Below are positions 14,901 to 61,393 of a stretch of DNA of 64,000 bases, piece by piece. The translations under genes were made by a program, and so were the position numbers. This DNA comes from Nemertoderma westbladi (taxonomy: Eukaryota > Animalia > Xenacoelomorpha). The notes beneath the pieces were generated by a model. It did no database searches. It worked only from the letters and a program-made list of their open reading frames with translations, and was not told where the DNA came from. The first letter of the stretch is position 1, and each line of letters opens with the position of its first letter. The stretch spans positions 8,714 through 72,713 of the forward strand of contig JAUCBJ010005384.1 in assembly GCA_032718475.1 (NCBI GenBank), read 5' to 3'.

Positions 14901-15050
14901 TTTTGCAAATGACCTCCAGTTGCCATGGTGAAACGGGACCCAAAAATTCAGAATTGAGCTTGGCATCAGACGGATTCGGAATCAGCACAGTCTATTTAGC
15001 TTAAAACCGTTGGATGCCAGTCATTACCCAAATTTGCCTTCGCCATCATT
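11998..15050. mobile_element. Foldback-type element with long inverted arms
   Basis: About 12000-12520 is inverted at about 13830-14100 plus 14805-15050 (right arm split by an RTE insertion). An inner inverted pair lies at about 12520-12740 and 13010-13220. Non-coding. Confidence 0.75.
14104..14696 (+). mobile_element. 5'-truncated RTE-clade LINE (3' end) with (TAG)n tail
   Basis: KLKVRLFRAAVAPVLLYGSPCW...RLRFAGHCFR ORF2 C-terminus, ending in TAGTAGTAG. A close copy lies at 35944-36543. Confidence 0.85.
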
Positions 15051-15218
15051 ATTTCGGCAAAAAGGACTAACATCATCCCAATAAATTATGTTATCACCCC
15101 ACGCAAAGCTACCATATTGAATTAGTGCATCAACATTGAATGTAATATTATTTGTATGTAATAAACGAATGTATTATACTTATTCCATTACAGTATTTAA
15201 GACCAAGACCAAGATTTA

Positions 15219-30892: not shown

Positions 30893-31912
30893 CTGGTACC
30901 ACTAGACAAAACGCCAGGTGTGCGGCCCATCGGCGTGGGTGAAGTCTTGAGAAGAATCATTGGAAAATCGGTAATGAACTGTGTTTGGGTTGATTTAGAA
31001 AAAATGGCAGGCAACACCCAGTTGTGTGTGGGGCAACTTGGGGGAATTGAGCATGCCATTCACGCCTTGCGCGACACCTACAACACACCTGAATGTGAGG
31101 GAATTTTACTTTTGGATGCAACAAATGCCTTTCAATGCTCTGAACAGACATCTCACACTGCTAAATGTTGAATACGTATGCCCCGCTTTGCAAACTGTCC
31201 TTGTGAATACTAATAGGGAACCAACCCCCTATTTGTGGCAAACGAGGTTATGTGGTCGGAGGATGGCTCAACCCAGGGGGACCCACTAGCTATGGCAATG
31301 TACGGAATTGGAACGTTTCCTATGGTAAAGAAACTTGGTGAAACCGGGACACAAACTCCCCCAACAATCACAGCAGACTCACAGGGTTGTCAGCAAACCA
31401 CGGTACCGGTACACCTAGGAGGCGTACAGCAACCCACGGCACACACAGGGAGCGGGCAGCAGCTCACGGTACACCCAGGGGTCGGTCAGCAACCCACGGT
31501 ACACCCAGGGGTTGGATAGCAACTCACGGTACACACAGGGGGCGGACAGCAACCCACGGTACACCTAGGGGGTGGACAGCAACCCATGGTACACACAGGG
31601 GGTGGTCAGCAAACCACGGTACACCCAGGGGGCGGACAGCAACCCACGGTACACCCAGGGGGTGGACAGCAACCCATGGTACACACAGGGGGTGGAATGC
31701 AACTCACGGAATACCCAAGGGTTGGACAGCAACCCACGGTACACCTAGGGGGTGGACAGCAACCCACGGTACACACAGGGGCGGTCAGCAAACCACGGTA
31801 CACCGAGGGGGCGGACAGCAAACCACGGTACACCCAGGGGGCGGACAGCAACCCACGGTACACCCAGGGGGTGGACAGCAACCCGCGGTACACACTTGGG
31901 GTGGACTGCAAC

Positions 31913-34248: not shown

Positions 34249-35943
34249 ACTGCAACCCACGGTACACCCTGGGGGTGGACAGCAACTCACGGTACACACA
34301 GGAGGCAAACAGCAACCCACGGTACACCCTGGGGGTGGAATGCAACTCATGGAACACCCATGGGTTGGACAGCAACTCACGGTACACCTAGGGGGTGGAC
34401 AGCAACCCACGGTTCACCTAGAGGGTGGACAGCAACTCACGGTACACCCAGGGGGTGGACAGCAACCCACGGTACACCCAGAGGGTGGACAGCAACCCAC
34501 GGTACATCCAGGGGGTGAACTGCAACCCATGGTACATCCAGGGGGTGGACTGCAACCCATGGTACACCCAGGGACAGGACAACAACCCACAGTAGACCCA
34601 GGAGGCGTACAGCAGCCCACCGTACATCCAGGGGTTGGACAGCAACTCACGGTAGACCCAGGGGGCGGACAGCAACCCACGGTACACCCAGAGGTTGGTC
34701 AGAAACCCACGGTACACCCAAGAGGCGTACAGCAACCCACGGTACACCCGCGGGGTGGACAGCAACTTACGGTACACCTAGGGGGTGATCAGCAACCCAC
34801 AGTAGACCCAGGGGTTGGACAGCAACTCACGGTACACCCAGGCGACGGACAGCAACCCACGTTACACCCAGGGGGTGGACAGCAACCCACCGTACATCCA
34901 GGAGGCGGACAGCAACCCATGATACACCCAGGGTGTGGAAAGTAACCCACAGTATACCCACGGGGCGGACAGCAACCCGCAGTACACCCAGGGGGTGGAC
35001 AGCAACCCAAGGTAAACCTAGGGGGTGGAAAGCAACCCACAGTACACCCAGGGGGTGGACAGCAACCCACGGTACACCTAGGGGGTGGACAGCAACCCAC
35101 GGTACACCCAGGGGGTGGACAGCAACCCAAGGTACACTCAGGGGGTAGACAGCAACCCACGGTACACCCAGGGGGTGGACAGCAAACCACGGCACACCCA
35201 GGGGGCGGACAGCAACCCACGGAACACCAAGGGGGCGGACAGCAACCCACGGTACACCCAGGGGGCGGACAGCAACCCAAGGTACACCTAGGGGGTGGAA
35301 AGCAACCCACAGAACACCAAGTGGGTGGACAGCAAACCACGGCACACCCAGGGGGCGGACAGCAACCCACGGAACACCAAGGGGGCGGACAGCAACCCAC
35401 GGTACACCCAGGGGTGGACAGCAACCCATGGTAGACACAGGGGGCGGACAGCACCCACGATACACACAGGGGGCAGACAGCAACCCACGGTACACCAAGA
35501 GGGTGGACAGCAACCTACGGTACACCAAGGGGGCGGACAGCAACCCACGATACACACAGGGGGCGGACAGCAACCCACAGTACACCAAGTGGGTGGACAG
35601 CAAACCACGGCACACCCAGGGGGCGGACAGCAACCCACGGAACACCCAGGGGTGGACAGCAACCCACGGTACACCCAGTGGGCGGACAGCAACCCAAGGT
35701 ACACCTAGGGGGTGGAAAGCAACCCACAGAACACCCACGGGGCAGACAGCAGCCCGCAGTACACCCAGGGGGTGGACAGCAACCCACGGTACACCTAGGG
35801 GGTGGACAGCAACCTACGGTACACCCAGGGGGTGGACAGCAACCCAAGGTACACCCTGGGGGTGGACAGCAACTCACGGTACACCAAGTGGGTGGACAGC
35901 AACCCACGATACACACAAGGGGCGGACAGCAACTCACGGTACA

Positions 35944-36543
35944 CTACTAGGATCGGCATGCTGCATTGCAGCTGCATTTTTAAGAATGCTGTGCCGGCTT
36001 GTCAACAAAATTGCACCGCCACAACTCCCTATCACCCATGACATTTGCTAGATCATCCGCATCTTTAAGGCCAGTGTCCTTTAAGATGCGTTTCAAGAAA
36101 GTCATTGGCTGTCCACCATGCTTATTCACTCCATGAGGCTGCCAAAGTACAAGATTATGCACTGGCTGGTCCTCACGGCGAAAGCAATGTCCTGCAAAGC
36201 GGAGGCGATTTTGTTCTAGTGTCAAGCTTGGGGGAACCAATGAGACACCTCCAATGTTATATAGTGTCTGGTTGGAGATGTGTGCATTATACTTGACACA
36301 ATGGACCCGGCGTAGCATTCTTGTGAATGTGCCATCCAGAGATTTGGTGTCCTCAGCAGTTAGAGCCCAGCATGGACTCCCGTAGAGGAGTACTGGAACT
36401 ACTGCTGCTCTAAATAATCGGACCTTAAGTTTCCGATTAATTCTCGGTGACTTCCAAATCCTGGAAAGCCTATTCAAGGCTGCCCATGCCTTTCCCTTAT
36501 GTATTCGAAGGTCCTCACCTGACTTCCGGATCCATGATCCCAG
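35944..36543 (-). mobile_element. 5'-truncated RTE-clade LINE inserted in the minisatellite
   Basis: Open 165-aa ORF2 C-terminus (35980-36477) with TAG tail. Same family as 14104-14696. Confidence 0.85.
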
Positions 36544-39046
36544 GGGGTGGACAGCAACCCACGATACACCCAGGGGGTGGACAGCAACCCATGGTACACA
36601 CAGGGGCTGGACTGCAACCCATGGTACACCCTGGGGGTGGACAGCAACCCACGGTACACCTAGGGGGTGGACAGCAACCCACGGTACACACAGGGGCGGT
36701 CAGCAAACCACGGTACACCGAGGGGGCGGACAGCAAACCACGGTACACCAAGGGGGTGGACAGCAACCTACGGTACACCAAGGGGGCGGACAGCAACCCA
36801 CGATACACACAGGGGGCGGACAGCAACCCACAGTGCACCAAGTGGGTGGACAGCAAACCACGGCACACCCAGGGGGCGGACAGCAACCCACGGTACACCA
36901 AGGGGGCGGACAGCAACCCACGGTACACCCAGGGGGCGGACAGCCACCCACGATACACACAGGGCAGGGGGCGGACAGCAACCCACGATACACCAAGTGG
37001 GTGCACAGCAACCCACGATACACACAGGGGGCGGACAGCAACCCACGGTACACCTAGGGCGTGGACAGCAACCCAGGATACACACAGGGGGCGGACAGCG
37101 ACCCACGGTACACCAAGTGGGTGGACAGCAAACCACGGTACACCCAGAGGGCGGACAGCAACCCACGGTACACCAAGGGGGGCGGACAGCAACCCATGCT
37201 ACACCAAGGGGGCGGACAGCAACCCATGATACACACAGGGGGCGGACAGCAACCCACAATACACCAAGTGGGTGGACAGCAAACTACGGTACACCCAGGG
37301 GGCGGACAGCAACCCGCGGTACACACAGGGGGTAGGCTGACCCAGGGGGCGGCAGAGGAACGTCACCTTACACAAAAATGGTTCGCAGATGATGGCAACG
37401 TTGCTGGTGGACTCCAAACTTTAAGAGAATACTGGGAGAAGGTAAACGGAATTGGCCCAGGATATGGATATTTCCCTAACTCGGTGAAATCGTACCTGAT
37501 TGTGAAGGATGAGCATAGAGCGAGGGCGGAGGAGATCTTCGCAGGATCCGGCATTCAACTGACAGATGGACATAGGGTGCTAGGGTCCGTCATAGGATCC
37601 CAGAGGGCCTGCCAGGCATTCATATCGGAGTGAGTGGATCAGCTATGCGAGCAGTTGGTGCGACTGAACGATTTCGCCAATGCAGACCCCATCCCGCATA
37701 CAGCTGCCTCATAAAAGGCATGCAACCAAAGTTAACATACTTATCCAGGACCATCCCAGGTTTTGCAGACAAGCTTGGCGCAGTGGAGGACTACATGGTG
37801 GATGACCTGATACCAACTCTGACTGGAAGAGCACCCCCCGGAGCTGTTGAGAGGGAACTGCTCGCTCTGCCCCTTAGAGAGGGTGGCCTCGCGATATCCC
37901 ATCCTCAAGACCTAAGTGAGTGCTACACCGCATTGAGAAGGATCTGCGAACCCCTCGAATCCCTTGGGTCAGTCCAACCACGTATGCTACAGCGGCCTAT
38001 AGTTCGGGAGGTGACGCGAGAAAGGGAAGAGAAACTTAAAGTGAAGGCTGTAGCTCTAAATGAACAGCTGTCAGAAGACTCAAAATACCTCCGGGCACTA
38101 TCACGAGAGAAAGGAGCCTCATCGTGGTTAACAGCTATACCAATTCTTAAATACGGGTTCGCCCTACACAAAACCGCCTTTCGGGATGCCCTGTGTTACA
38201 ATATGGATGGCTGCCACCAAGGCTCCCCTCTCATTGTGTATGTGGCGAGGAGTTCTCCATCTCTCATCCCCTACATTGCCCAACGGGGGGATATCCCAGC
38301 ATCCGCCACAATGAGATAAGGGACTATCTAGCCGAACTGTTGAACGATGTCGCCCATGATGTGGAGAGCGAACCACACCTCCAACCAGTGGAAGGCGAGC
38401 AGTTCCGACTCGCAAGCACTTCCAGAGACCTAGACACACGGTTGGACGTAGCAGCATCCGGGGTCTGGGGGGGGGGGGGGGGGGAGGTTTGAGAGAGTTT
38501 ACATCGATGTAAAAATATTTAACCCGTTGTGCGCCTCTAACCCTCGATCGATCAGCGCCTCATACAACAAACACGAGCGGGAAAAACGCCGAAAATATGA
38601 GGACAGAATAAATGAAATCGAACACTCTGCTGGTTTTTGCGCTTTCGTTATGGCAGCAACGGGCGGGGCTAGTCGAAGTGCTCACGCACTCATCAATCGG
38701 GTATCTCTCCTCCTCTCCGCAAAGCGGGACACTCCATACTCCCAGACAGTATCCCTGGTCCGCACGAGGCTAAACTATGCCCTGTTGCGGTCTTCTGTAA
38801 TGTGCATGCGCGGGGCCCGCATACCCAAGACCCGTCGATGTCCTCAACCACTGAGCGAAACCGGGATCCTCTGTGCGGTGACAGAGGGCCGGGTTTGATA
38901 ATGGAACTTTTGGGGCGCCAAAATAACTCGATTTATGTATTATATTAAAGTAACTATATTAAAATCTGGTATCATTGTGCTTTTTATTATTAAAAATTGT
39001 TAATAAAGATGTTGAGTGAGGAGGAAAAAAAAACAAAAAAAAAACA

Positions 39047-44168: not shown

Positions 44169-45797
44169 GTAATTGCAGTTAACAGTTATATCCAATACAT
44201 TTTCCGTTTTGTGTAGAACTTGACAGCATCGCGATACTTGAAAGATTTTAACTCACGCTGTCTGGCTGTCAAGTAGCGATACTTAATTAATCTACATAGG
44301 CAGAATAATACTCGTACTTGGGCCCGTAACAAGGAATTTTTTAGTTGGGTTTGGGTAGGAGGGGAAAATCAGGGTAAATTTTAAAAACAAAGCCTACTCT
44401 AGTATATAGGCCTATTATGTTAATATATTTTTATTACAACATTATTTAATCGCCACGGATTCTGTGAGCGGAAGACGCCAATAATTCCGTCAAAATCATC
44501 TGCACCTATCATACCAGAATCAAAGCAAATAAGTGTCAATGCTTCCATCGGAATGCTTCCGCAGTTTCGACGTTTACCCTATAAAATTATGTAATTGAAA
44601 AAAAATGGAAAACTTAAAAAAAGCGTAGAACTACACTAACAATACTGCAATAATACCAGCCTCAACACAAGATACACTACAACTAAACAGCACACAACAC
44701 ACTATGTGACGGGATCCGAGAGGATCCCGGTTAATCCGGTGTTGGTTGTGTACGCGTCCCCGCCGTACCGTGATGGAAAAGAGTTTGTGTTGCTCCGACG
44801 TTATTGTTAATATATGAAATACAGTATAAATAGGATGATAGCAGATAGCAGTTAATGATGGTAATGTACCGGTAATATGGTGACGGCGGTGACGGTCCTA
44901 ACTGTCACCGTACTGCCTGACTGTACTGGGATAACTGAATGAAAGCTGCATCGACCGGTAATATATATATTGCACAGTTGGCCATATTGCAGTATTGCTA
45001 CTCAGCCGATGCTTCCCCCCTGATTGGCTAATATCCCTGTTGGCACCCTTTGGAGTGTTTCCCTTCACTCCTTGTGTTCTCTCTCGGTTAGGGGTTTGGC
45101 CCCTGACCCTCGTTGTGTGTTTCTCCTTCCCATTTTGTTGGGGTGGCACGAGTGGTTGATTACCCAACCTCGTGGCCCCCAATATTGCTTAATGGTTTAC
45201 TTTATGGGGTTTGGTGAGGCGGAATTGATTCGCTAACACTCCCCCCATGCTATCTTCCCGGTGAGAAGATAGCATCAACCTCTAAGTGCGCTTCAATTCC
45301 GCTGGAACTCGATCTATTATCGGGTGTGGGGTGCAGTTATTTTCTTGGAGTCGGCTTTCCAGGCCGCTCCCTATGGGTATGATCTCACTACCCTCTGGCG
45401 TCTCGTGTCGGGCCGATCGTGCGCTTCTCTCACCTCTCCCCACACCTGAATCGCACTCTTCTCTCTCGCCAACAGTTCCTTTCACTATCTCCTCTCTACT
45501 CCCTGCCACTCTCTAAGGCCCTGACCTCTAATGCTACCCCTGTGCTATCATACTATCTACCCTATCTAAGGTCTAACTTGCTAACTATCTAACTTCTCTA
45601 ACTCTAACTAACTCCTAACTCTACTAACTACTATCTCTACTCTCTGCTAACTCTTACTACTTCTAGCTCTAACTAAAAGCCTCTAACTTTCTACTAACTC
45701 TAATTAGAACTCTCTAACTCTCTACTAACTCTAGCTAGCTCTAATTCTAACTCTACTAACCACTAACTCTTTTCTAACTCTGACTAAAATCCTCCAT

Positions 45798-46285
45798 CTA
45801 CGTGGCGCTTGTGGTGCCCACAACCATTCTACTACTACTTCTACTCTGCTACTAACTCTCTACTTCTACTAACTCTCTCTAACTCTTACCAACTCTTCAA
45901 CTACGTGGCGCTTAGGGTGCCCACAACCCCTTTACTACAATTTCCATCTACGTGGCGCTTCCGGTGCCCACAACCTCTCTACTACTGCTTCTAACTAAAA
46001 ACCTCTTACTAACTCTACCTCTATCTATGTGGCGCTAACGGTGCCCACAACCACAACCGGTACTACGTACCCTCTTACTAACTCTACCTCCATCTACGTG
46101 GCGCTAACGGTGCCCACAACCACAACCGGTACTACGTACCCTCTTACTAACTTTACCTCCATCTACGTGGCACTAACGGTGCCCACAACCACTCTACTAC
46201 TACTTCCGTCTACGTGGCGCTTGCGGTGCCCACAACCTCTCTACCACTACTACTTTCTACGTGGCGCTTCCGGTGCCCACAACCC
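45798..46285. repeat. About eight dispersed copies of CTACGTGGCGCTnnnGGTGCCCACAACC in C/T/A-rich low-complexity DNA
   Basis: Direct inspection of the BEL element internal region. Confidence 0.8.
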
Positions 46286-46600
46286 CCCTACTACTACTCG
46301 TGGCATGACAATATGCCACACTCCCTTACCCCGCCGCCTTCTAACTTACTCTCTTATCTTCTAACTACTTCTTACTTCTACTAACTATTATTTTAATTAT
46401 TTAATTATTTATTAATATTTATTTAAATTAAATAATTAATTTTTGTGGGAAGGGTGTCTCGCCCTCATTCCCACCCCCCTCAGTCCAAAATATTGGACGA
46501 CTAAACCTCCTAATTAGGGCGATTCTTCCAACAGGCACTCTCCCACTGCTGCTCTTGTAGGTCCTGTAGGACTCGCTGCACTCTCTTCGCCAATTCCATC

Positions 46601-49600
46601 TCACCAGGAATTGGTTCTCCCTCTTCTGCCACCCTGAAATCGGGTCTCTCCGCCGCAGTCTCCCACCAGCAGAATGAATAGAAAGTGAAAGAACAGGCAG
46701 AACAGAAGGTACAATAGTAGTCCTATCCCCTTCCATCCTGCCTTCCTTCTCGACTTCCCCCTTGTCGGTATGCCTCCAAACCTGACCTGCATCTCTTCCG
46801 GACACTCCTCTGGACACTCCCCCGGAGTGTTGTCCTCCGGACACCTCGCCGTCCGCTCCGCTCCATCTCCATACCGATGCTTGCTGGGAAGCCTACTCTC
46901 CTCTGCCCACTTTCTTACTGTCACCTCCCTATCTGGCTCTACTACCTCTTGTTTCTCCTCTACTTCCTCTGCGTCTTCGGTGCCTGGTATCATGCACCCA
47001 GATGTCTCTGTCACACTGCATATGATATTGGTCTTAACTGGGCCGCTAAGCGTCCATCCGAACGGCGTGAGGATCGCCGTCGGGTCCCGCTGCCTGTCTT
47101 CGCCGAAGACCGTCTTCATCCTCTCATGGGCCGTCGGGCAGTCCATTCCTACTATAATGGACACCTTCCTAACGTCCACCTTTGGTATTGAGAAATCGAT
47201 ACCGTCCAGGAATCTATACTGCTCGACCTCAATGTTGGTTGGTCGCCTAGCGTTGATATTTATCGATTCTATGACGTGGATGGGGTCGATCGTCGCCCCA
47301 TAGTCGCATCCCGGTGCAATCGCTGCTATCCTGCACCGCCCCGTCCTCGTCTCCAGGACCTCATCTTTACTCGAGACGGTAGATACCGCCATTCTATTCG
47401 GCCTCGTCTTTAGCCCTATCTCTTCGGCCACCCAGTTCTCCACCAGCGTGAAGGCTGCTCCGCTGTCGACCAGCATTAATGTCGTTACTGATCGACCGCC
47501 CTCTCCTGATATCTTTACTGGTACTACCCCGAGTAGTACTTTTCTCTTCTTCTTCTCTTCTGTCATGCTTCTAGCTGCTGTTTGGCCTCCAGTCTCCTCC
47601 TCTCTTGCTGCTGTTTCTCTACACTCTCCGGGTCTGTGTCCTTCTACCACACATCGATGACATAGTCCGTTTGCGTCTGTGTAGGCTACACGATCTTGTT
47701 TGGGCAACGCTTGCCAGTGCTTACAACTCCTGGTCTTATGGGTTCCGTCCCGATGTAATTGACATTTGAATCCTGGATTATAGCGTTCCCTGTATAGTCC
47801 CTCACGTATCGCGCCTAGGTTTATATGTACCGATTTAGTGTTTTGGTTGTCTGTATTCGGCCTACTGGGTATGTTGGGATTATGTTTATTTATGTTGTTA
47901 TTTTCTTTCTGTCCCTGCCACGGTGTGGCCCTACTACCAGCTAACCGTGGACTAGCAGTCCCCTGTGTGGCCGCATGTGGTAGTGACTGTCCCACTCCCG
48001 AGAATGGGTCTGTCGGATTATGTTCGGGTTTAGGCCTGTTGTATTCGATCTTTGGCGCCTTCCCCAAACTATCCTCGCTATAGACTGGATCTGTTATTAA
48101 CTCAGCTTCGTAGTTTAGGAAGCTTGACATCTCTTCTAAACCTGGTTCCGCACCCTTCTTATCTCGAGTGGAGAAAGCGATTTTTCTCCACTTCCTTCTT
48201 AACCAGATCGGCAGTGCCTGCGCTATCGTGGTGATGTTGTTAGACGCGTTGAGTTCGTATGGTGCGTCTAGCGTCTTTAACACGATTAACGCCTTCTCGA
48301 CCTTGTTCGCAAAGGTCCTTATGCTAACGGGATTATCCTGTAGGCCACCCGATGTTATGCCTCTCAGGGTTTGCTGGATGATCTTGGCTGGGTGCCCGTA
48401 TTCCCTATCTAGCGCCCGCCATGCTGTCGTGAAGCCGCCCTCGATGCCCTGGTATTGCCTCATGATGTCGTATGCTGGGCCTCCTGTATATACTTGCAGA
48501 TACTTTAGGCACTCCGCCTGCGTCAAGTTCTTTGTTAGTATTTCATTACTATACATACGCCGAAACTGTAGGTATTCTTCTGGCCTACTCCCATCGAATT
48601 TAAACGGTTCCACGGGTGGTAACTTGATCCTAGTTTTTAACGCATCGATTAATGTGGCCATTCCCATCGCTTGCGCTTCTAATGGGTTCGATGGATGTTG
48701 TGTAGTTTCTCCTGTTGGGTGCGGTCCGTCCGTCCTATCTGTTGACTTTGCTTGTTGCGTCGGATATATCATTGGGGGTAACGGCCCCTTCCATATTTCC
48801 GTGTCGCACGATCTGCTCTCGTCCAAGGGGTTCGATGTTCTCGCTCTTATTGGGGTATATTGTTGATATTGTGATGGGGGAATGTCACCCTGCCCCCCCC
48901 CCCCCCCCACCGGTATGTTTAGTACTGGGGTTGATGTTAGTATATTGGGGCCCATGCACCTATCCGCAATAATTCCCCCCTCCCCTGGATATATGTAATG
49001 TCCTTGTGTATTATAGTCATGCTGCTGTACCGGTACCGATATAGGCCTATCTGCTTCTTGCCTACCTACCGGTATGTACTCCGCGACTTCCGGGTTTAAT
49101 CCCGTCGTCCGCGCTACCCTATCGCCTACTCTATCTCTCCCAGAATGGCCTATAATAGTATGTGCAGTAAGGCCTACAGTATGTCCTGCAGTCTGCATGT
49201 GCCCTTCCGAACCGAAGTTTATTCTTCGCGAATCTCGAATCTCCCCGCGACTACCGTACTCTCGATCGGCAGCTATATCCCGTCGGGAAGCTTCTCTTCG
49301 ATCCCCTATCCTGCTCTCGTCTTCGTATCGGTACATCCTGTACCCCTCTCTTGGCGTGTGGTGCGTTTCTCCGGGGCGACGGCAATCTCCCGAAGTCCGA
49401 CCCCACTGACTCCCTAATTCCCTCTCTACTATCGACGGCTCGCTATCCGTCCTCGCTCTCCTATCGTCCGTGGCGACACTTCTTCTACTATCTTCTCTTC
49501 TTCTCTTTTCGACCTCTCGGTTAAACTCTACTAATCTTCTTCTATCTTCAACCCCTCTATTAAACTCTACTAATCTTCTCTCTTCTGACTGGGCTCGACG

Positions 49601-49822
49601 TTCCGTCGCTCGCCCTCTCGCGACGTCAACCTGTCTCTCTCTGCTCGATCGCACGCCGCTGGGGATACTCGCAATCCCCCTATTACTCCCCATCGCCGGG
49701 TGTTGCGGTTTACCTAATTCGGCCCGCGCATTATCCGCCGACGCCTGTGGGACACTCTCTGCCCCCCCTCTCTCGCTACTAATCTCTCGCGGTGGGGTGC
49801 CCGTAGCCCCCCCCCCCCCCAC
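46601..49822 (-). CDS. gag: BEL/Pao Gag-protease polyprotein (true start probably upstream across a frameshift)
   Basis: FDGSRPEEYLQF...CLKYLQVYTGG (Pao gag/DUF1759-like), CQLH...HKTRSC and CHRCVVEGHRPGEC knuckles, LVDSGA aspartic protease and AILTPFGWTLSG. Confidence 0.85.
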   Translation of the reverse strand: MGGGGATGTPPREISSERGGAESVPQASADNARAELGKPQHPAMGSNRGIASIPSGVRSSRERQVDVARGRATERRAQSEERRLVEFNRGVEDRRRLVEFNREVEKRRREDSRRSVATDDRRARTDSEPSIVERELGSQWGRTSGDCRRPGETHHTPREGYRMYRYEDESRIGDRREASRRDIAADREYGSRGEIRDSRRINFGSEGHMQTAGHTVGLTAHTIIGHSGRDRVGDRVARTTGLNPEVAEYIPVGRQEADRPISVPVQQHDYNTQGHYIYPGEGGIIADRCMGPNILTSTPVLNIPVGGGGGQGDIPPSQYQQYTPIRARTSNPLDESRSCDTEIWKGPLPPMIYPTQQAKSTDRTDGPHPTGETTQHPSNPLEAQAMGMATLIDALKTRIKLPPVEPFKFDGSRPEEYLQFRRMYSNEILTKNLTQAECLKYLQVYTGGPAYDIMRQYQGIEGGFTTAWRALDREYGHPAKIIQQTLRGITSGGLQDNPVSIRTFANKVEKALIVLKTLDAPYELNASNNITTIAQALPIWLRRKWRKIAFSTRDKKGAEPGLEEMSSFLNYEAELITDPVYSEDSLGKAPKIEYNRPKPEHNPTDPFSGVGQSLPHAATQGTASPRLAGSRATPWQGQKENNNINKHNPNIPSRPNTDNQNTKSVHINLGAIREGLYRERYNPGFKCQLHRDGTHKTRSCKHWQALPKQDRVAYTDANGLCHRCVVEGHRPGECRETAAREEETGGQTAARSMTEEKKKRKVLLGVVPVKISGEGGRSVTTLMLVDSGAAFTLVENWVAEEIGLKTRPNRMAVSTVSSKDEVLETRTGRCRIAAIAPGCDYGATIDPIHVIESININARRPTNIEVEQYRFLDGIDFSIPKVDVRKVSIIVGMDCPTAHERMKTVFGEDRQRDPTAILTPFGWTLSGPVKTNIICSVTETSGCMIPGTEDAEEVEEKQEVVEPDREVTVRKWAEESRLPSKHRYGDGAERTARCPEDNTPGECPEECPEEMQVRFGGIPTRGKSRRKAGWKGIGLLLYLLFCLFFHFLFILLVGDCGGETRFQGGRRGRTNSW

Positions 49823-52800
49823 CCGCCACTTCTAACTTCACTATCTCCTACTACACTTCTACGTCCCTCTTGTCGGACATTTTCTACCCCCCTTCTCTCT
49901 CCCCTAATCTTCCGTGATGGGGCTCCTGTAGCCCCCCCCCCCCCCCCACTCGCCCCCCCCCCCCACCCGTACGGTTGCTGTACGTACTGTACGTGTACCG
50001 CATGCTCTGTTCTCTTGCCTCACACTCTTCGCGTTCACTCTCTTGCTCCTTCCTTCCCCTCAGTCGCCACTCTAATTCTTCCATTTTTAATTTATATGCC
50101 ATGCATTCACTCTCTCGCACCCGTCTTTCTTTTGCGGAGGATGTAGCGGACTTATCGGTTGCGACGGACTCCCGCCGCCCCTCCGTCCTACTAACTTTCC
50201 CCCGCTCTCCAGGGTTCTCGCTGACCGACGAGGCCAAATCCTCGGAGCTAACCTCAGATTCGCCCTCGTGCGGTCCCGCCCAACCCACTAACTTAACTTC
50301 CCTGGCATCGACTAAGTATGGCCCTATGTACACTACACCAGGCCCCATACCCCTACAAACAGTTCGATGGCAACCCCTCTTGCTCTCTCGCTGGCTAGTT
50401 CTCCCTGCCCAGAATGCACTAGGTAATCAAAGTATCTGTTCGACTCACCTAGTCATCTCCTCAACTTCACCTGGTCTATCTCAGCTCCTCCTCTAGTTTC
50501 TTTCAGTTGTTCCCGGGTCGCGGCGTAGGCTCGTCGGAGCCGGACAACCCCGACGTCGACATATAATCTCTCCCTCTGGGTCCGACGTCGTACCGTCGGC
50601 TCCACCGTTGCCGTTCCGGTGGGCCGTTCGTCGCCCTCGGCCTGTGGCTGGCCGGCGACATCGGCATATCGACCGCCGCCCTGTGTCGACTCGTCTCTCT
50701 CCTCTCCCGACTCGTCCTCTCGCTGTAGACGGCCCCCTTCATCTTAGATCGCCGGATCGTTCGTCGACGGATCTGGCGTCGTGGGTTGATACCGTCTCGC
50801 CATGGCCTCGCGGATCGTTAGATCGTCGTCCGGGGTCCGCGGCGGTGTCGTCTTTCCTTCTCTACTCATCTGTCTGTGTCTGGCAGTTACAGTTCGGCAG
50901 GCCTAGAGTTAGGACTGTGACGGGATCCGAGAGGATCCCGGTTTATCCGGTGTTGGTTGTGTACGCGTCCCCGCCGTACCGTGATGGAAAAGAGTTTGTG
51001 TTGCTCCGACGTTATTGTTAATATATGAAATACAGTATAAATAGGATGATAGCAGATAGCAGTTAATGATGGTAATGTACCGGTAATATGGTGACGGCGG
51101 TGACGGTCCTAACTGTCACCGTACTGCCTGACTGTACTGGGATAACTGAATGAAAGCTGCATCGACCGGTAATATATATATTGCACAGTTGGCCATATTG
51201 CAGTATTGCTACTCAGCCGATGCTTCCCCCCTGATTGGCTAATATCCCTGTTGGCACCCTTTGGAGTGTTTCCCTTCACTCCTTGTGTTCTCTCTCGGTT
51301 AGGGGTTTGGCCCCTGACCCTCGTTTTGTGTTTCTCCTTCCCATTTTGGGGGGGTGGCACGAGTGGTTGATTACCCAACCTCGTGGCCCCCAATATTGCT
51401 TAATGGTTTACTTTATGGGGTTTGGTGAGGCGGAATTGATTCGCTAACACACTAGCACTAGACAGATACTATACTGCTATATGCATATTACCGGTAATAC
51501 AATTAATTGTGTGCAGCCAGACAGTAGGTAGAAAGCAAAAGTACAGTACCGTAGGGCCTACCACCTACATACAGTCCGCTATCAGTTCACCATTTGTTAT
51601 ACAAATCACAACACATAAAAGGCGGGGGAGAGTTGCAGAAACATCCATTTCGGTAATAATACACAACACAATCTACAGGTACGTATACTTTACAGGAGGA
51701 CCAGTGTTCGATGACTGTAAGGGTGCAGTACTGTACTGTAGTAACAGTGTTGGCCTACGGTAGGTATTTAAAATGAAAGTAAATTCCAATCTGAGTTTAA
51801 TATGTACCGTTGTTTGATTACTGCCAGGCTGTGTACACTGTAACAGAGCAATAACAGTACTGTATACTGCAGCCTATTACAAGTACATTACATATAGTAT
51901 TGACAGTGGAACAATCAATGTTTAAAGAAGACGCATGGAACCAGAAAATGGTTGTGTACAATGTTAAATTATTACTGATGAAGTAAAATTGTCTTCAAAA
52001 AAATTAATAGGCAAAACCCACGTTAGGCTAGGCGGCACCTGCCTTCGCCTTTGGGTAGGCCTATAGGCATGAAATGTTAAAAGCATTTGGTACAGTAGAT
52101 CATGACATTTTGCTAGGTAGGTTTAGGCCTGATGGGTGTAGGTTCTACAGTATTGGTTCCAGTCATACCTGTCAGATAGAGGTCAAACTGTAGTCATTAG
52201 CATATCGCAGTCTACTGTACAAGAGATTACCTGTGGTTTACAGCAAGGTAGTATTAGGTCCTCTACTTTTTGTATGCTTTAAATTATATGATAAGTAGTA
52301 TAGGCCTACTGTAGATCCCGATTGTACGAGTGGTTGGTTGATAATAAGCTATCCATTCACTGTGGTAAGACTGAAATAATTTTATTGGACTGCTGCTGTA
52401 TTCTTATCTTAGAAACCCATTTACTTTGAAACAACCGCTATCTGCGAAATTTACAATTAATAACACAATAACTACAGTATTTAAGTGGTGGCAAAAAGTA
52501 GGCTTTTTTGACGAGCGTAGCGAGACAAATAAAAAAGCAAGACAAAAAACGTTTTTCCACCATAGCTATCGATAGCTATAGCTATCATACAGCTATCACG
52601 ATAGCTATCATGTGTTCTATAAAACTTATAAAAAATTAGCAAAAACTAGCTAGTATTAGAAATTATCCATTTAATATATTATCTACATATTTAAATGTAA
52701 ATACAAATTTAAATCTACTTATTTAAATTAATATCATGGAAACATTACTTTTTGTGCTGACATAAAAAGTCTTTTTATGTCAACTTGTTAACGACTATTT

Positions 52801-55111
52801 ACTAAAAAAGTGACTTACAACAAATAAATATAATAATGTACTTACCATATATATAATACCGGTATGAATTGTATGATTATTAACTACGTTTTTATTACAT
52901 TTAAGGAATCGTATAATGACACTCGTGATCACACGCCAGAAACTATCCGCAAACACCCATCGGCTTTCGCTGAAATCGCGAGAATTATTTGGTACAACAA
53001 CATGGGAGAAATAATTAATTGATGATGATATTAAAACGCAGCAAATCTCTTGGATGACGGACAAAACATCTGTTACACCAACCAAATAAAGTACTTATGT
53101 TCCCTGCTGCTAGTCTGCAATATAAAATGCGAAGCAATTGATTTGACACGTGTAGGCCTACGTGTTTCAAAAATGCAATAAAATAAAACGTTCCTATAAT
53201 AACTAATATTGGTTTTACTTAATAACATTTTTCGAGATTTTATTACACGAGTCTGGCAGAACAATCACTGTGTCAAGACCACATTATCCGCTGGAGCTCT
53301 GCAAACCGATTTTAAATAATTTATTCTTAATGGTTACATTTGTTATCCTCGCATACAGTAGCTGCCAAGAACGTACAGCCTATAGGTCGGAACGCTGCAT
53401 AATAATAAATATCTTAGAAACAATCGAGTTCTGGAACTTTTTTTGTGTATTCCCTATTCGCTGTGGCCAAGGTGTCCTAAACTATAGGCCGGCCATGCAA
53501 CCGGAATTTACTCGATAACTTACTATGAGGGTCAAAATTACATAGTAAATATAGTGGAAATTTCATGTTATTGTAATTGTGAAAATCAATAATTTTTTTT
53601 ATAAAAAATATAATAAATTTTTCCATTTTCATTTTTGTTCCACCAAAGAATGTCAGCAACTTAATTACACTTATGATTTTCTAAAATGTTCACTGTAGTC
53701 CGGCAGATATATGCGGTTTTTTCACTGAATTTTTTGCATCGGCGTATATAGTAAATGTTTTGGGTGATTTTGGTAAGAAATTTTATTGTGATCAATATTC
53801 CGACTGATGCCTAGGTTGTATCATTGAGGAATTTGTGTAATTATCAATTTAAATAATTGTCACCAGGAACGGTTAAGATAATTCATCCTGTTCATTCAAC
53901 ATGATTCAATTACAATTAAACTTTACAACACCGGAATCACCATCTTATGGTAAACTTTTATGACAATTTTCATTTCAGTCGCGTCAAATATTTATGTAAA
54001 TTTAGTTTCTCTATTTTTTTTGGCTGAAAGTTGAAATTAATACATCTATTTTAATTTTGGAAAGGTTTTTTTAAATATATTAACCTATAGCCATGAATTT
54101 AGGATTGATGCAATGGTATTTTATTAAATTATTTTTTTAAATAAATTTAAGTAACAAATCTTGATTATCGTTACGATAGAGAAGGCCTACATTTTAGAAT
54201 TTGAAACCGGGGCTGTTCCCATTGGAACAATAGTGAGTAAAAAACGTTCTGGAACACACCCCTGTAGGTCCGAAAATCGTATTGCTTTTGCAAATAAAGT
54301 CATGACCCGGTGTAGAATTTTGTAACTTTTAGTACGGGCTCTGGCGGCGTTAAGCGCAATACCTTCAGTAAATTAACGAGACTATTATTTTTGGATGGAG
54401 GACCATGTTAGACGTCAGAACACAGTTGGTGATCGGTATAGCTAATTTGCATTCTAGAACTACAGGCCAAAAACAAGCTAGCTAGCCGACCCCTACCTAA
54501 CTCTATGTTGGGCCCTCTGGTTGAATATAAATGCAATCAATTTTTTCAAATGAACATTTTTCTTATAGAGGGAAGACCGGCGATTAATTTAAATACAAAT
54601 ATATCGCCACTTTAATTTTTTAAATGCGATAAATTTACATGAGAACAAAATACTTTCACTTTTTTAAGAAACCAACATTTACATTAACTGCCATAAAATG
54701 TAGCTACTTTGGTTTAACACGTTCAAACATGTATCAAAATTTGCGCTAATTATTTCTGCATTCACCCATGCAACTCATTTTGGATGAGTACTAAATCCTC
54801 CTAGTCAATTAGCCCGATTATTATCGGGGAAACGATAATCAGAGAATATTCAGAGAAAGTATACTCTCTGACATTTGGAAATATTTACTACAGTTACTAA
54901 GGTAACTAACTATTCTGTGAACGGCACTCCCTTACTGTACATGTATTACCTTGCGTTGTGTAGTTTCTAGGCGACTGACTGTATACACTAAACACGCAGG
55001 CACAATCAAGTCGTTTTAAAGCAGCCCCCTGTGTTTTTTTTAATAAGAGTTAGTAGTTTACAGTATGTACCGCCGATGTTCTTAAAAATTTAGCAATCTA
55101 AAAATAGAGTA

Positions 55112-57753
55112 TTGTGTAATGACCATATTTATATATTTAATAGCATTTTTCTTCACCTAGGGGACTTTCACTTTATGAGGGAATGTTTCGGAATTTTAGG
55201 AAAATTAATATCAGGCTCTGGGTTTGAAGACATCATATATCAGTCAGGGATTTGTACAGATGGGGCGATAAGTAGCATTATATCAACTTCACCACATTAC
55301 AACCGGTGTTGGTACATACATAGCCATTTTTCATAGGCTTATGTTTGAACGATTTGTAATAGAACAACCAGAACTGGAGTGGAGGATATCGAAATCAAAG
55401 CAAAATTTAGGTACTGATCTCGCAAATGAACAATGCGAATACGACAAATACATTTTGCAGCAGTACAGTAAATTTACTAATGACTGCAAATTAGAGGTGT
55501 TTACGGTATTACTCCTATGTTTTGGACAACTTGTTACCTTGAAATATACACTGCAATCCAAGCTCTTCACTGCGCAGTGCAAACAAATAACTACCATTTG
55601 AGATTATATGCATGGAAGTATCTTATAGCATGGGCGTTTTCACTAAACAAACAAAACTATTCTCGATTTGGCTCATATTACATCAGAAGTTTAGAGACTA
55701 TAGACATATCTCACCCAGGTTGCCGGCAAATTATTCAAGAAAAGGGTTTATCTGTCCAGGCTCAGGACAAATACTTATGCCGCACTTCCATAGATCAACG
55801 AGGGGAGCAGACCATAAACAAAGATGCTAAAGTAGCTGGTTGTATCAAGTACTTTGCCACAAATGAAGATGCAGTACGTAAATGGACATTGAATCGAGCT
55901 GCACAAGCAGAAAACACCAAAGCTCTGTGCGAAATGGCTAATATTAAGCGACACTCTGAAGTATACAAATTACTCCGTCCTTCTGGCATTAATATTTTAA
56001 TCTGAAAAATTCATCCAGCAAATTTTAAACGTGATGAAAACAGAGTATCTGAATCCTTTTGAACTTTGTTTAAAACCCGACAAGCTTTACAATTTGAGTT
56101 CTGGTATTCCAGTAAAAGAGGAACAGGCAATTGAAATATTGGCTGTAAAGAAAAATGGAATAGAAGCATGTACAAAATTTACTACTGAAAGATTGGATAA
56201 CTGTAATGTAAAGTTTTTTGACCCCATAACACGCATGAAGGTAACATTGTTCAAGGATACGGGAAGAAATATTCAGATTAATGGAGCGGGGAAGACTAAA
56301 GTTGTAGAAGTAAATCGCAATATATTAGGTGCTCTTCTGGCACACAGTACTGCATCGGGAAAATTAATCGATTTTAAAAAAGCACTGGAATATCCACTTA
56401 GTCCTGTACCTCTGTCAGTCGCATATCCAGACGGATCACCAAGAAAGACGACAAAGAGTCAACTCATGGATATTGTTCTATCATATAATGAAAACCAAAT
56501 GACCAAAAATCAATTCGAGGAAAGTAATTTGAATGGTAATGTGAAGTGCTATATGCTCGATCTTATAGCAGAAATTAGATCCATCGTGTCGTCTGGCAAA
56601 ACCTATGAAGATCTTGTGTTTGGAATTTTGAAGAAGATTCCAAAAGGAATAGACCGCATTGACTTAATTGCAGACACCTACAATGATAAAAATTCCATAA
56701 AAATTACTGAGAGGCAAAGGCGAGGCACTTCGACAACCATACTCATTAAGTCACCGAAATCGATGCTGCCAAGAAATTTGTCTGATTTTCTTCTCAACAG
56801 TGCCAATAAAAATAGACTTATTGATATCATACAAGAACATAATATAGTATTCAACAAAGAGAGAATAATTGATGACCTCCAATGTAAATTTATATTATTT
56901 TCAAAGTACTGTTCATGTAGTAAGATTGATAAAGATTCTGTTAACGAAGTTGAGTACTTGCAAAGCAATCAGGAGGAGGCAGATACTAAAATCATTCTAC
57001 ACACTCAAGATGCTTTAAAACTTGGCTATTCACCAATACTAATACGTTCTCCTTCTGGGGATATTGATATTACTTTACTGTTAGTACATTTTTTTCGACA
57101 TCCTCACGATCAAAACGTTATTTTAGATAATGGAAGGAACAAATCCCGCAAGGTATTGCGAATTAGTGATTTCGAAATGCCAACAGAACTAAAAGACTGC
57201 ATACTAGGAGTACACGCTTTTACAGGAAACGATCAGGTTTCATCATTCTTTGGAAAATCTAAAAAACGCTGTTGGAAGATAGCTGAAAAGCGTTCGAACT
57301 TCAGAAGATTATTTGCCGAGCTTGGAAGCTCGATAATATTAACTGCAGAGACGGAATTGGTGTTAGAGAAGTATGTGTGCTCACTGTATTCAACCAAACA
57401 AGAACAACATTGGACTGTCAATGAGCTTAGATACCAGATTTTTAATTTGCACTGCCTAAAGAAACATAGATGCCATGACTTGTCAACAATGCCCCCTTGT
57501 AAAAGAGTACTTAGTCTCCATATAAAATGAGCCAACTATGTTGCTTACCTCTGGAAAGCATCACTAAATAATATTATCGCGATAAATAGATTCACAGATC
57601 ATGGCTGGAATGATGATGGATCCATCCACTGGTCGGATGAGTATTTCCCTTATGACATCAGCAATATTTTGATAAATTGTGTCGAGGAACAAGAAAGCGG
57701 CAAAGATAGTGACGAAGATAGTGAAACGAGCGATGAGGATGAAGCAAGTGATT
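55112..57753 (+). pseudogene. Academ transposase with XPG/PIN-like nuclease region, 5'-truncated and frameshifted
   Basis: LGDFH, HYNRCWYIH, NYSRFGSYY, DQRGEQTINK, QEEADTKIILH, SGDIDI, HAFTGNDQVSSFFGKSK and MPPC...LHIK*ANY motifs over several frames. Confidence 0.8.
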
Positions 57754-58386
57754 AGTTTAGGACAACTTCCATGATTCATTTGGCATTATTGCCAATGCAT
57801 TTACATTATACTGTATTAGTAGTAATATATTATATTTATTGATAATTACTAAAATTAAATAGTTAAATAAGCAGCAAAGTTCTGACGACAAGGCAAAAAG
57901 GCAAATCTGATTGCACTACCGGATGCTGTACTTACTACGTATATGTGGAGACATACTGTAGGACAGTGAAGTAGAACATGATGTTCGTCCTGTACAGCTG
58001 AGTTGTCGCACTGACAGACTAATGAAGAATTCTAATGAAGAATTAAGTAACTTATAACTAGGAGTGTTTGCATTCTTACATAATTTGAATATACAGTGGA
58101 AAGGAATATCCATCCATATCTATGTTCTTAAGCATTTATGTAATAAAATTTTTCATAGGCTTAAGAATACGTTACCTTAATGGTGGAACCCCCAATTCGA
58201 CTAAACAGAGTTCTATAAGAATTTGTATACGGACATTTAATAGTATTTTACCATCCTACACGCCTTCCAATGTTGATATATTTATTACCTTACAGAAAAC
58301 TATATAAGATATTAAATAAATGTTATAGTACATTATGATAATGCTCTCCATAGTGAAAAATATCAACTGCCCCTATTGGGGCTCGA

Positions 58387-58430
58387 ACTCGGTACCTAGG
58401 TTTCAAACTTCCGGTTATCATCAACCGAGT
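58387..58430 (-). ncRNA. Minimal type I hammerhead ribozyme, C3U variant
   Basis: Identical to 58756-58799 except core TTGATGA (position 58424). Confidence 0.75.
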
Positions 58431-58755
58431 GTGTGTCCTAAGACCACTGAGCTACCAGGGCGGTAGAAGATTTATTCACTTTGGAGTGGGCTATCATATA
58501 TAGGCCTTTTACAGTCACTCATAGGAAAGTACAACGTTATTCCCGTGCTCTGCCAGAAATGGCAACCATGCCTCAAAGAATAACTATTATACAGTGTTGT
58601 AGAAACCACTGTAACCCCGTATGCCGGCCATGCCTGTTAATTAATTATAAATGAATTGTTGTAGGGAGGGTGACGGCGAATTAAATAAATGTTATAGTAC
58701 ATTATGATAATGCTCTCCATAGTGAAAAATATCAACTGCCCCTATTGGGGCTCGA

Positions 58756-58799
58756 ACTCGGTACCTAGGTTTCAAACTTCCGGTTATCATCAGCCGAGT
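58756..58799 (-). ncRNA. Minimal type I hammerhead ribozyme (intact core)
   Basis: Minus strand ACTCGG-CTGATGA-T-AAC-cggaa-GTT-T-GAAA-CCTAGG-TA-CCGAGT: 6-bp stem I, palindromic ACCTAGGT stem III and a GUA site (cut between 58762 and 58761). Confidence 0.88.
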
Positions 58800-60355
58800 G
58801 TGTGTCCTAAGACCACTGAGCTACCAGGGCGGTAGAAGATTTATTCATACCTTTCCTTTAATACACCCGATTTACTGATATACCTACTTACTTATAATGT
58901 AATATATTCATTGATTGCATGGCATTTCTGTTCTGTACGTTTCGTTTATGGCAAATTATATTCCCTCTGGTAAACAAAATTTGTTGCTGTTAAATAAATA
59001 ATTATAATTATATTGAAGAAATGACAATTTATTTTAGTAAATATTATTTTCCTAATTGCTAAGAATATTATAACTTTGCTTCGGTTTTTGTCACAACATA
59101 ATAAGCTACTGTAGTAGAAAAGTTTGAAAGCGAAAGTATAAATTCTGACTCTCAGAATATCAGTTCCATCTTTGTATTATTTATCTAGGGAGCCCACAAC
59201 CGGAGTGCCGCCGATTAATTGTTCGGGTAACACTAGATCTTTGAACAATGAGTACAGTTCAGGAGGATCTGTCATAAGAATTTGCAACGATCTGTGACTC
59301 AGTTTATGTATAAGCGCATGAATTTTGTATAATACATTAAAAAACAATTAATATAATGTAAGGAATCGCCTACACTGGTACACAACATAGGCCTACAGTA
59401 CATATAGTTGCCTAGTAACTGTAGTAAATATTTCCAAATGTCAGAGAGTATACTTTCTCTGAATATTCTCTGATTATCGTTTCCCCGATAATAATCGGGC
59501 TAATTGACTAGGAGGATTTAGTACTCATCCAAAATGAGTTGCATGGGTGAATGCAGAAATAATTAGCGCAAATTTTGATACATGTTTGAACGTGTTAAAC
59601 CAAAGTAGCTACATTTTATGGCAGTTAATGTAAATGTTGGATTCTTAAAAAAAGTGAATGTATTTTGTTCTCATGTAAATTTATCGCATTTAAAAAATCA
59701 AAGTGGCGATATATTTGTATTTAAATTAATCGCCGGTCTTCCCTCTATAAGAAAAATGTTCATTTGAAAAAATTGATTGCATTTATATTCAACCAGAGGG
59801 CCCAACATAGAGTTAGGTAGGGGTCGGCTAGCTAGCTTGTTTTTGGCCTGTAGTTCTAGAATGCAAATTAGCTATACCGATCACCAACTGTGTTCTGACG
59901 TCTAACATGGTCCTCCATCCAAAAATAATAGTCTCGTTAATTTACTGAAGGTATTGCGCTTAACGCCGCCAGAGCCCGTACTATTTTAGGGAAATCCTCA
60001 ATGATGCCAGTTGGGTATTGGTCGGATTATTCATGACAACAGTATTACCTACCCGGAAGTTAAAACATTTACTATACTTCCATGAACGGTATAATGCAAT
60101 AGTGTGGTAAATATTGTGCTAAATAATTATCCTATTGAATCAGAAAAAAAAATTATAATTGTAGTTTTATAATATATTAAACCATAAATTTATAGGCCTA
60201 TCCAATATCCATGGCAGGCAATGGCTGGCAATATATTTAGGCCTTTGCTACCTAAATTATGCTACTGTTTGACGTACGACAAAAATAGACTGCAATTTTG
60301 TCATGGTCATGTAAACTAAATCGTATTTTAGCCTAAAAATATAATAATATTATAA

Positions 60356-61393
60356 ATGGATGCGACTGTTACTTTTGCTGTTGCTATGGTTTTACTGGCG
60401 TGTACGATTAACGTAATATTCTTGGAGCATATGATCCGATACGACCCAGGGGCTGGCCCACTTATAACGTGTCTGCAGTTCCTATTTGTTGCTCTGGACG
60501 GACTTGTATTCGAAACAAAATTCCTCACCAAGAAACCAAAAATTCCGCTTCTTCAATATACCAAACTCGTTATAACTTTCTTTCTAGTGGGTTTTTTCAA
60601 CAATTACGCGCTAAACTTTAATATATCGATGCCGCTTCACATGATAATTCGATCTGGATCTTTGGTTGCCAATATGGCTTTGGGAATTTATCTTAGACAA
60701 AGAAAATACGCCCTGCTTGCAGTTATTATGATAACATTGGGGATTACAATGGCTTCAATAGCATCAGCAAAGACTACAACATCGACAGCAGTTACGTCTA
60801 CGGCTACTCCTACTGATAAGGAAGACATGGAACCGTTATTACGGTGGTTCATCGGACTTTCCATGTTGTTATTCGCGCTGTTTTTATCGGCTCGACTTGG
60901 TATTTACCAAGAGGTTTTATTCGAAACTTACGGGAAATATCCAAGAGAAGCTTTATTTTACAACCACGCGCTACCGCTACCGGCATTCCTCTTTATATTA
61001 CCAGATTTATACCGAAACTTGACGCTAATCAACGACTCCGATCCTCTGTTTCAACTATTCGGTATACAAATACCGACAATGTGGATGTCGATGTTTGCGA
61101 ACGTTGTCACCCAATATATTTGTATAAGATGTGTGTTTATTCTAACCTCAACGTGCACATCTCTCTTTGTAACTTTGGTAATAACTTTAAGAAAGTTTAT
61201 TAGTCTAGTGTTCTCAATAGTGTATTTCAGAAACACTTTTACTGAGTGGCATTGGGTGGCCACTGTATTAGTTTTCTCTGGGACTCTTTTGTTTTGCGGT
61301 GTCTTCGAGTTTGCGTACAGACGAAAACCTGTACACAAAACCGTAACATTGGAGAATGTTACTGAGAAGGAACTTATAACGGCGAGACATTAA
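60356..61393 (+). CDS. SLC35B4: UDP-xylose/UDP-GlcNAc nucleotide-sugar transporter (345 aa, intronless)
   Basis: NNYALNFNISMPLHMIIRSGSLVANM, LSARLGIYQEVLF, EALFYNHALPLP and TLVITLRKFISLVFSIVYF are characteristic of SLC35B4/YEA4. Confidence 0.92.
   Translation: MDATVTFAVAMVLLACTINVIFLEHMIRYDPGAGPLITCLQFLFVALDGLVFETKFLTKKPKIPLLQYTKLVITFFLVGFFNNYALNFNISMPLHMIIRSGSLVANMALGIYLRQRKYALLAVIMITLGITMASIASAKTTTSTAVTSTATPTDKEDMEPLLRWFIGLSMLLFALFLSARLGIYQEVLFETYGKYPREALFYNHALPLPAFLFILPDLYRNLTLINDSDPLFQLFGIQIPTMWMSMFANVVTQYICIRCVFILTSTCTSLFVTLVITLRKFISLVFSIVYFRNTFTEWHWVATVLVFSGTLLFCGVFEFAYRRKPVHKTVTLENVTEKELITARH

Follow-up and report, generated by a model that had tools for sequence, protein, structure and literature searches.

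A candidate retrozyme of Nemertoderma westbladi whose hammerhead motif is flanked by the two boxes of a tRNA-Lys-like promoter

Metazoan retrozymes without long terminal repeats (non-LTR retrozymes) are described as short non-coding units of 150-450 bp with <50% G+C, which lie head to tail in many copies, carry one type I hammerhead ribozyme with a palindromic stem III per unit, and show Penelope-like insertion forms (PMC7229834; bioRxiv 10.64898/2026.07.22.740005). According to the first of these accounts, the tandem units of 150-450 bp give rise to circles, and axolotl and mussel retrozymes are ligated by RtcB in vitro (PMC7229834). A link between retrozymes and Penelope elements is drawn in the second (bioRxiv 10.64898/2026.07.22.740005), and Penelope elements are reported to leave inverted truncated copies (PMC8557442). 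Transcription of animal retrozymes is an open question: a 2020 review states that retrozymes seem to have no promoter (PMC7761336), and the animal-retrozyme preprint, in the text that we consulted, makes no mention of transfer RNA (tRNA), RNA polymerase III (Pol III) or a promoter (bioRxiv 10.64898/2026.07.22.740005). Here we analyze a 64,000-nucleotide stretch of the Nemertoderma westbladi assembly GCA_032718475.1 (contig JAUCBJ010005384.1, positions 8,714 to 72,713; hereafter the window), in which a 369-bp repeat resembles these retrozymes and, unlike them, has tRNA-type A and B boxes around its ribozyme.

The repeat appears on the minus strand as two 168-bp direct copies with a period of 369, at 58680-58847 (upstream, copy 1) and 58311-58478 (downstream, copy 2). 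An earlier note on this DNA had described this arrangement, and the A box, hammerhead strands, palindrome, GUA sites and B box overlapping stem I that it listed are all present. The locus holds a recent copy, 1.45 units long, of an abundant repeat without coding capacity, in which a hammerhead motif sits within a tRNA-Lys-like promoter; this repeat probably works as a retrozyme. The note's proposal that the element is retrozyme-like, its ribozyme flanked by the two boxes, is supported and gains strength from an empty site, the abundance of the repeat, two compensatory pairs and a conserved helix joining the ends of the unit. The feature is real, under selection and mobile, a nested-promoter version of the retrozyme or Sm-alpha type.

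The empty site is found within single contigs of two runs (X1, at a depth of 652.7, and X2), where 58312 is joined to 58848. Because this joint exists, the insertion can be delimited to 58313-58847 (minus strand), 535 bp or 1.45 units, which is more than one unit. The 168-bp extent given earlier holds for the repeat, but the two letters of the lower copy at 58311-58312 belong to the flank. Just two letters (TA on the plus strand) fit both sides of the insertion, without a longer target duplication. The insert contains no open reading frame (ORF) of 80 or more amino acids, and it crosses the predicted cut site twice. It starts 17 nt ahead of tRNA position 1 and ends 43 nt past the second of two T5 runs, with its 3' end out of reach of a Pol III transcript terminated at T5; its extent corresponds to a minimal promoter, a unit and a ribozyme. 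Short interspersed nuclear elements (SINEs) likewise have A and B boxes of tRNA origin, but a classical SINE starts at tRNA position 1, with a tail and a target duplication, whereas this insert starts 17 nt earlier, spans 1.45 units and shares only two letters with its target.

The abundance of the repeat was assessed from contigs of four runs (X1, X2, X4 and X5) placed on 58050-59100. This stretch received 926 contigs in X1, 79 in X2, 753 in X4 and 3 in X5, and summed depth in X1 was 17,317-185,195 over the unit versus 653 on the flanks, which indicates abundance rather than copy number. The X5 contigs, from what is presumed to be an RNA run, had a depth of 3-17 and were left out of the analysis. 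Divergent contigs bridge the spacer-to-head junction (e.g., X1 records 2, 4, 5 and 6) and the tail-to-spacer junction (X2 record 12), and the unit is therefore head-to-tail at other loci too. The sequence traits of non-LTR retrozymes are found together: 369 bp, 42% G+C, head-to-tail order, no coding capacity and hundreds of divergent contigs. The traits of Penelope-type non-autonomous elements are found as well, namely partial tandem insertion, inverted truncated neighbours and variable ends. Loose 3' ends lie in an AT-rich tract past the T5 run (58707-58634 in copy-1 coordinates), and opposite-strand joints make up 6 of the 15 joints listed (26 in total).

The two repeats are identical except at catalytic core position 3, which is C in copy 1 (58793) and T in copy 2 (58424). 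They also have in common letters that are rare in the family, A at 58758, 58737 and 58723, where the other letter holds 83-100% of depth. Together with the two crossings of the cut site, these shared rare letters suggest either that one template was read for more than one round or that an uncleaved multimer of near-identical units was copied. Combined with the empty site, they support, with a clarity unusual for sequence data, the copying of more than a unit from a single template.

The minimal type I hammerhead of copy 1 occupies 58756-58799 (minus strand, as are all features of the repeat). Stem I is formed by 58799-58794 and 58761-58756, and between its strands lie CUGAUGA (58793-58787), stem-loop II (58786-58774), GAAA (58773-58770) and the 8-nt stem III palindrome ACCUAGGU (58770-58763). 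Cleavage is predicted at the GUA site, at 58762/58761 in copy 1 and at 58393/58392 in the copy 2 hammerhead (58387-58430), so that the predicted monomer would run from cut to cut over 369 nt (58393-58761). The core CUGANGA, GAAA and UH are present in copy 1 and in most other copies; copy 2 departs from them with a U at core position 3 (58424) opposite G8, a place where other copies have C in 77-100% of depth. The earlier claim of a complete hammerhead in each repeat thus holds for the core of copy 1 and fails for that of copy 2, and stem II lacks the G10.1-C11.1 pair. Hammerhead activity needs pairing of C3 with G8, and the copy 2 hammerhead is likely impaired owing to its U3 with G8, which would likely make this locus a weak donor. 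A U3-A8 covariant of the core has been noted (PMC4209133). Where Li et al. (2026) look for a complete hammerhead in two consecutive units as a sign of activity, this locus has one intact core and one U3 core.

Window-wide, the only three hammerhead-like motifs coincide with the only three pairs of A and B boxes, namely those of the two repeats and of an element near 1216-1314. A hammerhead with a stem I of at least 5 bp and a palindromic stem III was obtained in 0 of 150 shuffles; pairs of A and B boxes alone say little, with a mean of 0.64 per shuffle and three or more in 6 of 200. In other copies, the core and the boxes are largely kept, and stem I shows compensatory change. The variant evidence comprises 40 of 64 rows and gives per-place shares from contigs. 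At the 19 core and palindrome positions, which are nearly invariant, it holds two rare variant rows only (<1% in X1 and X4; in X2, 18% and 30%, each from a single contig). Covariation is seen in stem I (6 bp): its pair 58797/58758, U-A in the window, has become C-G or U.G in the majority of copies, with C at 58797 in 56-100% where contigs are placed on copy 1 and 0-30% on copy 2, and G at 58758 in 83-100%. Loop II is variable (58781). For the palindrome a self-duplex of -11.4 kcal/mol is predicted, and when two copies of the ribozyme stretch are co-folded, the minimum is a dimer held by the palindrome, at -29.0 kcal/mol versus -7.3 for each alone. We regard self-cleavage of the hammerhead as quite likely. 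Minimal hammerhead motifs are described as poorly active even as dimers (PMC4209133).

The tRNA-Lys-like scaffold around this ribozyme spans 58737-58830 in copy 1 and 58368-58461 in copy 2, with six of seven acceptor pairs in register and two of five T-stem pairs. The A box lies at 58813-58823 (copy 2, 58444-58454) and the B box at 58748-58758 (copy 2, 58379-58389), the latter overlapping the 3' strand of stem I. Behind the scaffold follows a terminator-like T5 run (58725-58729; copy 2, 58356-58360) that the earlier note had missed. It is the only run of at least four T per unit, a number not rarer than chance (P 0.39), and it is also part of the closing helix described below. Both boxes persist while letters are gained and lost in the stretch that links the A box to stem I, the A box being retained even in copies without the linker behind it, and no variant row is listed within 58748-58757 in the B box region.

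Among the viral-contig loci having both scaffold ends, 32 of 35 were tRNA-Lys (2 Arg, 1 Met). In an alignment to tRNA-Lys, the GGU ahead of the cut is the GGU of the variable loop, the cleavage triplet falls on tRNA positions 46-48 with the cut after 48, and where a tRNA has the 5' strand of its T stem, the repeat has stem I, which shares letters with the T arm. By this register, the ribozyme replaced the anticodon arm and took over positions 46-54. The variable region, which the earlier note had also held to be replaced, was instead kept in part, its GGU serving as the predicted cleavage triplet. Given this overlap of triplet and stem I with positions 46-54, few changes would be needed to couple a tRNA gene to a ribozyme.

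The ends of the predicted monomer are joined by a closing helix of 27-29 bp, formed by an upstream arm at 58472-58500, ahead of tRNA position 1, and a downstream arm at 58701-58729 (copy 2, 58332-58360). The flank pairing that the earlier note saw as extending the closing helix is part of this longer conserved helix (58472-58500 with 58729-58701). Over 58472-58498, 22 of 27 positions pair, a score that 2 of 1000 shuffles reached. Variants are listed for four pair positions, and at each of them pairing is retained or improved: 58478/58723 changes from U-A to C-G, and three mismatches are closed. Because one arm precedes tRNA position 1, a simple Pol III transcript of a single head could not contain the helix; it is possible in read-through RNA, in the monomer, whose ends it would bring together, and in the circle.

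In engineered tRNA-hammerhead chimeras, which are laboratory constructs that cleave in trans, the ribozyme is inserted into the anticodon arm and thus also lies between A box and B box; unlike these, the 369-bp repeat would be a natural mobile element, predicted to cleave in cis or as a dimer. The SINE-like Schistosoma repeats Sm-alpha and Sj-alpha likewise combine a tRNA-derived Pol III promoter with a type I hammerhead and need tandem copies to propagate (PMC6765202; PMC2770079). In Sm-alpha, the ribozyme is drawn behind the promoter (PMC6765202, Fig. 6G; box positions from a review), whereas here the predicted cut separates the A box from the B box, and the latter has letters in common with stem I; a whole Pol III promoter upstream of the hammerhead, as in Sm-alpha and Sj-alpha, is absent, since the B box lies behind the cut. 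The minimal hammerheads of Penelope pseudo-LTRs are likewise described with a palindromic stem III, an extra U behind A9 and a partial tandem with direct repeats (PMC4209133); unlike these, the present repeats enclose no ORF, lack G10.1-C11.1, have a short stem II and sit in a tRNA scaffold. Full-text literature yielded no natural element whose ribozyme is flanked by the two boxes; subscription papers, supplements, Repbase and Dfam lay outside this scope, and the family may therefore be catalogued already.

Pattern searches were made in collections poor in animal DNA, where blanks say little. The family pattern had no match in prokaryotic genomes and viral contigs, and a short-loop pattern gave 8 loci, none with an A box or a palindrome. 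A general pattern was found at 2 loci in viral contigs and at least 119 in metagenome contigs, none of which combined an A box, a full stem I and the palindrome, apart from intron-bearing tRNAs without the palindrome.

How might such an element propagate? A transcript spanning two ribozymes would cut itself via dimeric hammerheads, and the resulting 369-nt monomer, with 5'-OH and cyclic-phosphate ends, would be closed by the host tRNA ligase RtcB. A circle is rather likely to serve as the template. A partner enzyme of Penelope type seems just as likely, a reverse transcriptase that would prime in the AT-rich tract and copy the circle past one unit into new sites. The start from the element's own boxes would be the weakest step: transcription by Pol III from its A and B boxes with one T5 read through falls a little short of probable, the alternative being read-through from the host, and a single read-through per transcript would suffice. 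Cleavage would separate the two boxes and so leave a linear monomer with a split promoter; an intact one would be regained only in copies made from a circle or a multimer. By extension, but in our view unlikely, a tRNA gene may have been turned into a self-splitting mobile element, its hammerhead built partly from its own variable loop and T arm, its tRNA-half-like ends ligated by the host tRNA ligase, and its Pol III promoter rebuilt by closure of the circle. If this were true, the repeat would be a SINE that must pass via circular RNA, and it would give the clearest example of a retrozyme whose own promoter lies within the ribozyme domain. Even short of this, Pol III boxes here surround the ribozyme of an animal retrozyme-like repeat, which matters for the question of how such elements are transcribed.

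Several observations weigh against the retrozyme explanation. The variants are per-place contig shares and not haplotypes. No autonomous partner element was seen, although no search aimed at one was made. A change at 58426, in 47% of low depth (X1, two contigs), breaks stem I. The stem II pair G10.1-C11.1, described as highly conserved (PMC4209133), is replaced by A-U behind an extra U or by U.U, depending on the reading, and no major variant supplies it. Checks with a hammerhead model and a tRNA gene finder, of the kind that the earlier note had proposed, did not recognize the element: the Rfam hammerhead models gave no match at the gathering score or at E up to 10, and ARAGORN called no tRNA gene at the repeats. 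Part of the opposite-strand joints may arise from the closing helix or from repeats, and the closing helix itself could partly stem from an old inverted duplication. Spacer variants outside this helix mostly lose their predicted partner, and the circle is therefore not a conserved rod. Folding compared with shuffles was unremarkable (z -0.5 to -2.0; circle, z -1.07).

A further complication is a 9-nt segment at 58806-58814, complementary to the stem III palindrome, which is predicted to block the ribozyme fold: it pairs with the palindrome at a probability of 0.97 and leaves stem I at 0.02 in the whole scaffold. Once the segment is removed, stem I reaches 0.86-0.98. In X1, 17 contigs pass from 58805 directly to 58815 in the A box, as a low-agreement consensus of loose ends, and many other copies apparently lack the segment. 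It may protect the circle, or it may just weaken this subfamily. Masking of the ribozyme by pairing, as predicted here, has been reported for plant circles but not for most animal circles (PMC7229834).

A serious possibility, if not a probable one, is that the element is the same retrozyme but that its tRNA part is a relic or minor promoter. Monomers would then come from host or transposon read-through, and the boxes would give at most a 105-nt RNA ending at T5, which might act as a dimer partner in trans. This explanation departs from the one that we favor solely in the source of transcription. It draws on the T5 run directly behind the scaffold, which begins 32 nt behind the cut, has no listed variant and also counts against transcription from the element's own boxes; in human cells, T5 is reported to terminate Pol III near-completely (PMC8466645). 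It is also in line with the view of the review cited above that retrozymes depend on read-through (PMC7761336). Also in its favor, a change at 58739 in 48-88% of depth breaks acceptor pair 2-71, unless partner changes went unseen, and just two to three of five T-stem pairs remain. On the other hand, both boxes are kept while the linker changes, the B box region at 58748-58757 is free of variant rows, the insertion has just the extent of minimal promoter, unit and ribozyme, and the window's second family likewise has boxes coupled to a ribozyme.

It is improbable that the repeats belong to an autonomous Penelope-like element that acquired a tRNA promoter, as its pseudo-LTR or as what an internal deletion left of it, and that they were copied from linear partial-tandem transcripts without a circle. 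The partial tandem, inverted joints and palindromic minimal hammerhead are all Penelope traits, and uncleaved multimers could yield the same insert, but the insert has no ORF of at least 80 amino acids, contigs bridge both the spacer-to-head and the tail-to-spacer junction as one 369-bp unit, and the helix joining the monomer ends is conserved.

Intron-bearing tRNAs deserve separate mention, since the pattern of hammerhead plus B box gave such tRNAs in 59 of 121 loci among the matches listed (54 with CUGAAGA), because CUGAAGA is the anticodon loop of tRNA-Phe; 14 of the 59 have five or six of six "stem I" pairs, and the window copy can itself form four of five anticodon-stem pairs. In 35 of 37 intron tRNAs, the C of the CUGANGA-like string stands at index 31-33, versus index 38 here, the T stem of the repeat pairs at two of five positions and the cloverleaf fold is not kept, which does not describe a functional or intron-bearing tRNA. 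That the repeat is a tRNA-derived SINE or satellite with a hammerhead look-alike made of an anticodon loop and an intron-like insert, devoid of catalysis, is very improbable even with its atypical stem II and the missing Rfam match, because the common 58797 change keeps stem I and breaks the anticodon-type pair, the variable region has 3 nt versus 5 in all 59 intron tRNAs, the scaffold ends match tRNA-Lys, whose anticodon loop is not CUGANGA, 1 of the 121 loci among the matches listed has a palindromic stem III, and the insertion, besides being circularly permuted, exceeds one unit.

Descent of the repeat from an intron-bearing tRNA-Phe was also considered but not retained, because most of the likeness follows from the search pattern itself and the ends match tRNA-Lys. 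As an observation in its own right, prokaryotic intron-bearing tRNA-Phe genes (loci L003-L121, e.g., L112, L059 and L019) match the hammerhead descriptor and are a source of false ribozyme matches. Most of the genes tried in ARAGORN were overlooked or wrongly labeled, 1 of 12 being called Phe.

The window also holds a second, very abundant tRNA-headed hammerhead repeat, at 1140-1493 on the plus strand, with an A box at 1216, a B box at ~1258, a core at 1278 and a predicted cut after 1308. Here the hammerhead follows the B box, as in the Sm-alpha layout. Summed depth in X1 was 108,000-763,000 versus ~160-520 on most flank bins, and 1249, 51 and 832 contigs were placed in the runs. Stem II is damaged in the window copy, whereas most copies are canonical: with the variants listed at ~99-100%, the core reads CUGAUGA, stem II has 4 bp including G10.1-C11.1, and the T4 run is lost. 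A long helix (~1186-1210 with 1316-1340) closes the domain of tRNA and ribozyme. No sequence likeness was found between this family and the 369-bp family, and, with both present in the same animal, two promoter-ribozyme layouts can be compared directly.

The 369-bp repeats lie within a DNA transposon at 54330-59983 (plus strand), which is context and separate from the retrozyme. It measures 5654 bp and has 580-bp terminal inverted repeats that are 99% alike, TAG ends and TTT on both sides; it is likely an Academ element. The retrozyme repeats are placed between its broken ORF (55136-57752) and its right terminal repeat. This truncated, broken ORF matched no Pfam family and no solved relative, and it has 21 longer homologues of 894-1578 amino acids, all unnamed or hypothetical.

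Downstream, at 60356-61393 (plus strand), lies an intronless gene for a UAA-family sugar-nucleotide transporter, distantly of SLC35B4 type, with at most 54% identity to 120 listed proteins; its divergence points to a fast-evolving or poorly sampled animal lineage. Elsewhere in the window, near-identical direct repeats with gag/pol-like ORFs at 18058-23142 and 44705-51215 are likely young LTR retrotransposons, and three arrays of a 30-nt unit (17, 57 and 26 copies) are interleaved with reverse-transcriptase-like fragments at 31407-37332. Nested inverted repeats with arms of 206, 235 and 179 nt occupy 11990-15058, and a 568-nt arm at 14121-14688 recurs in inverted orientation at 35943-36510.

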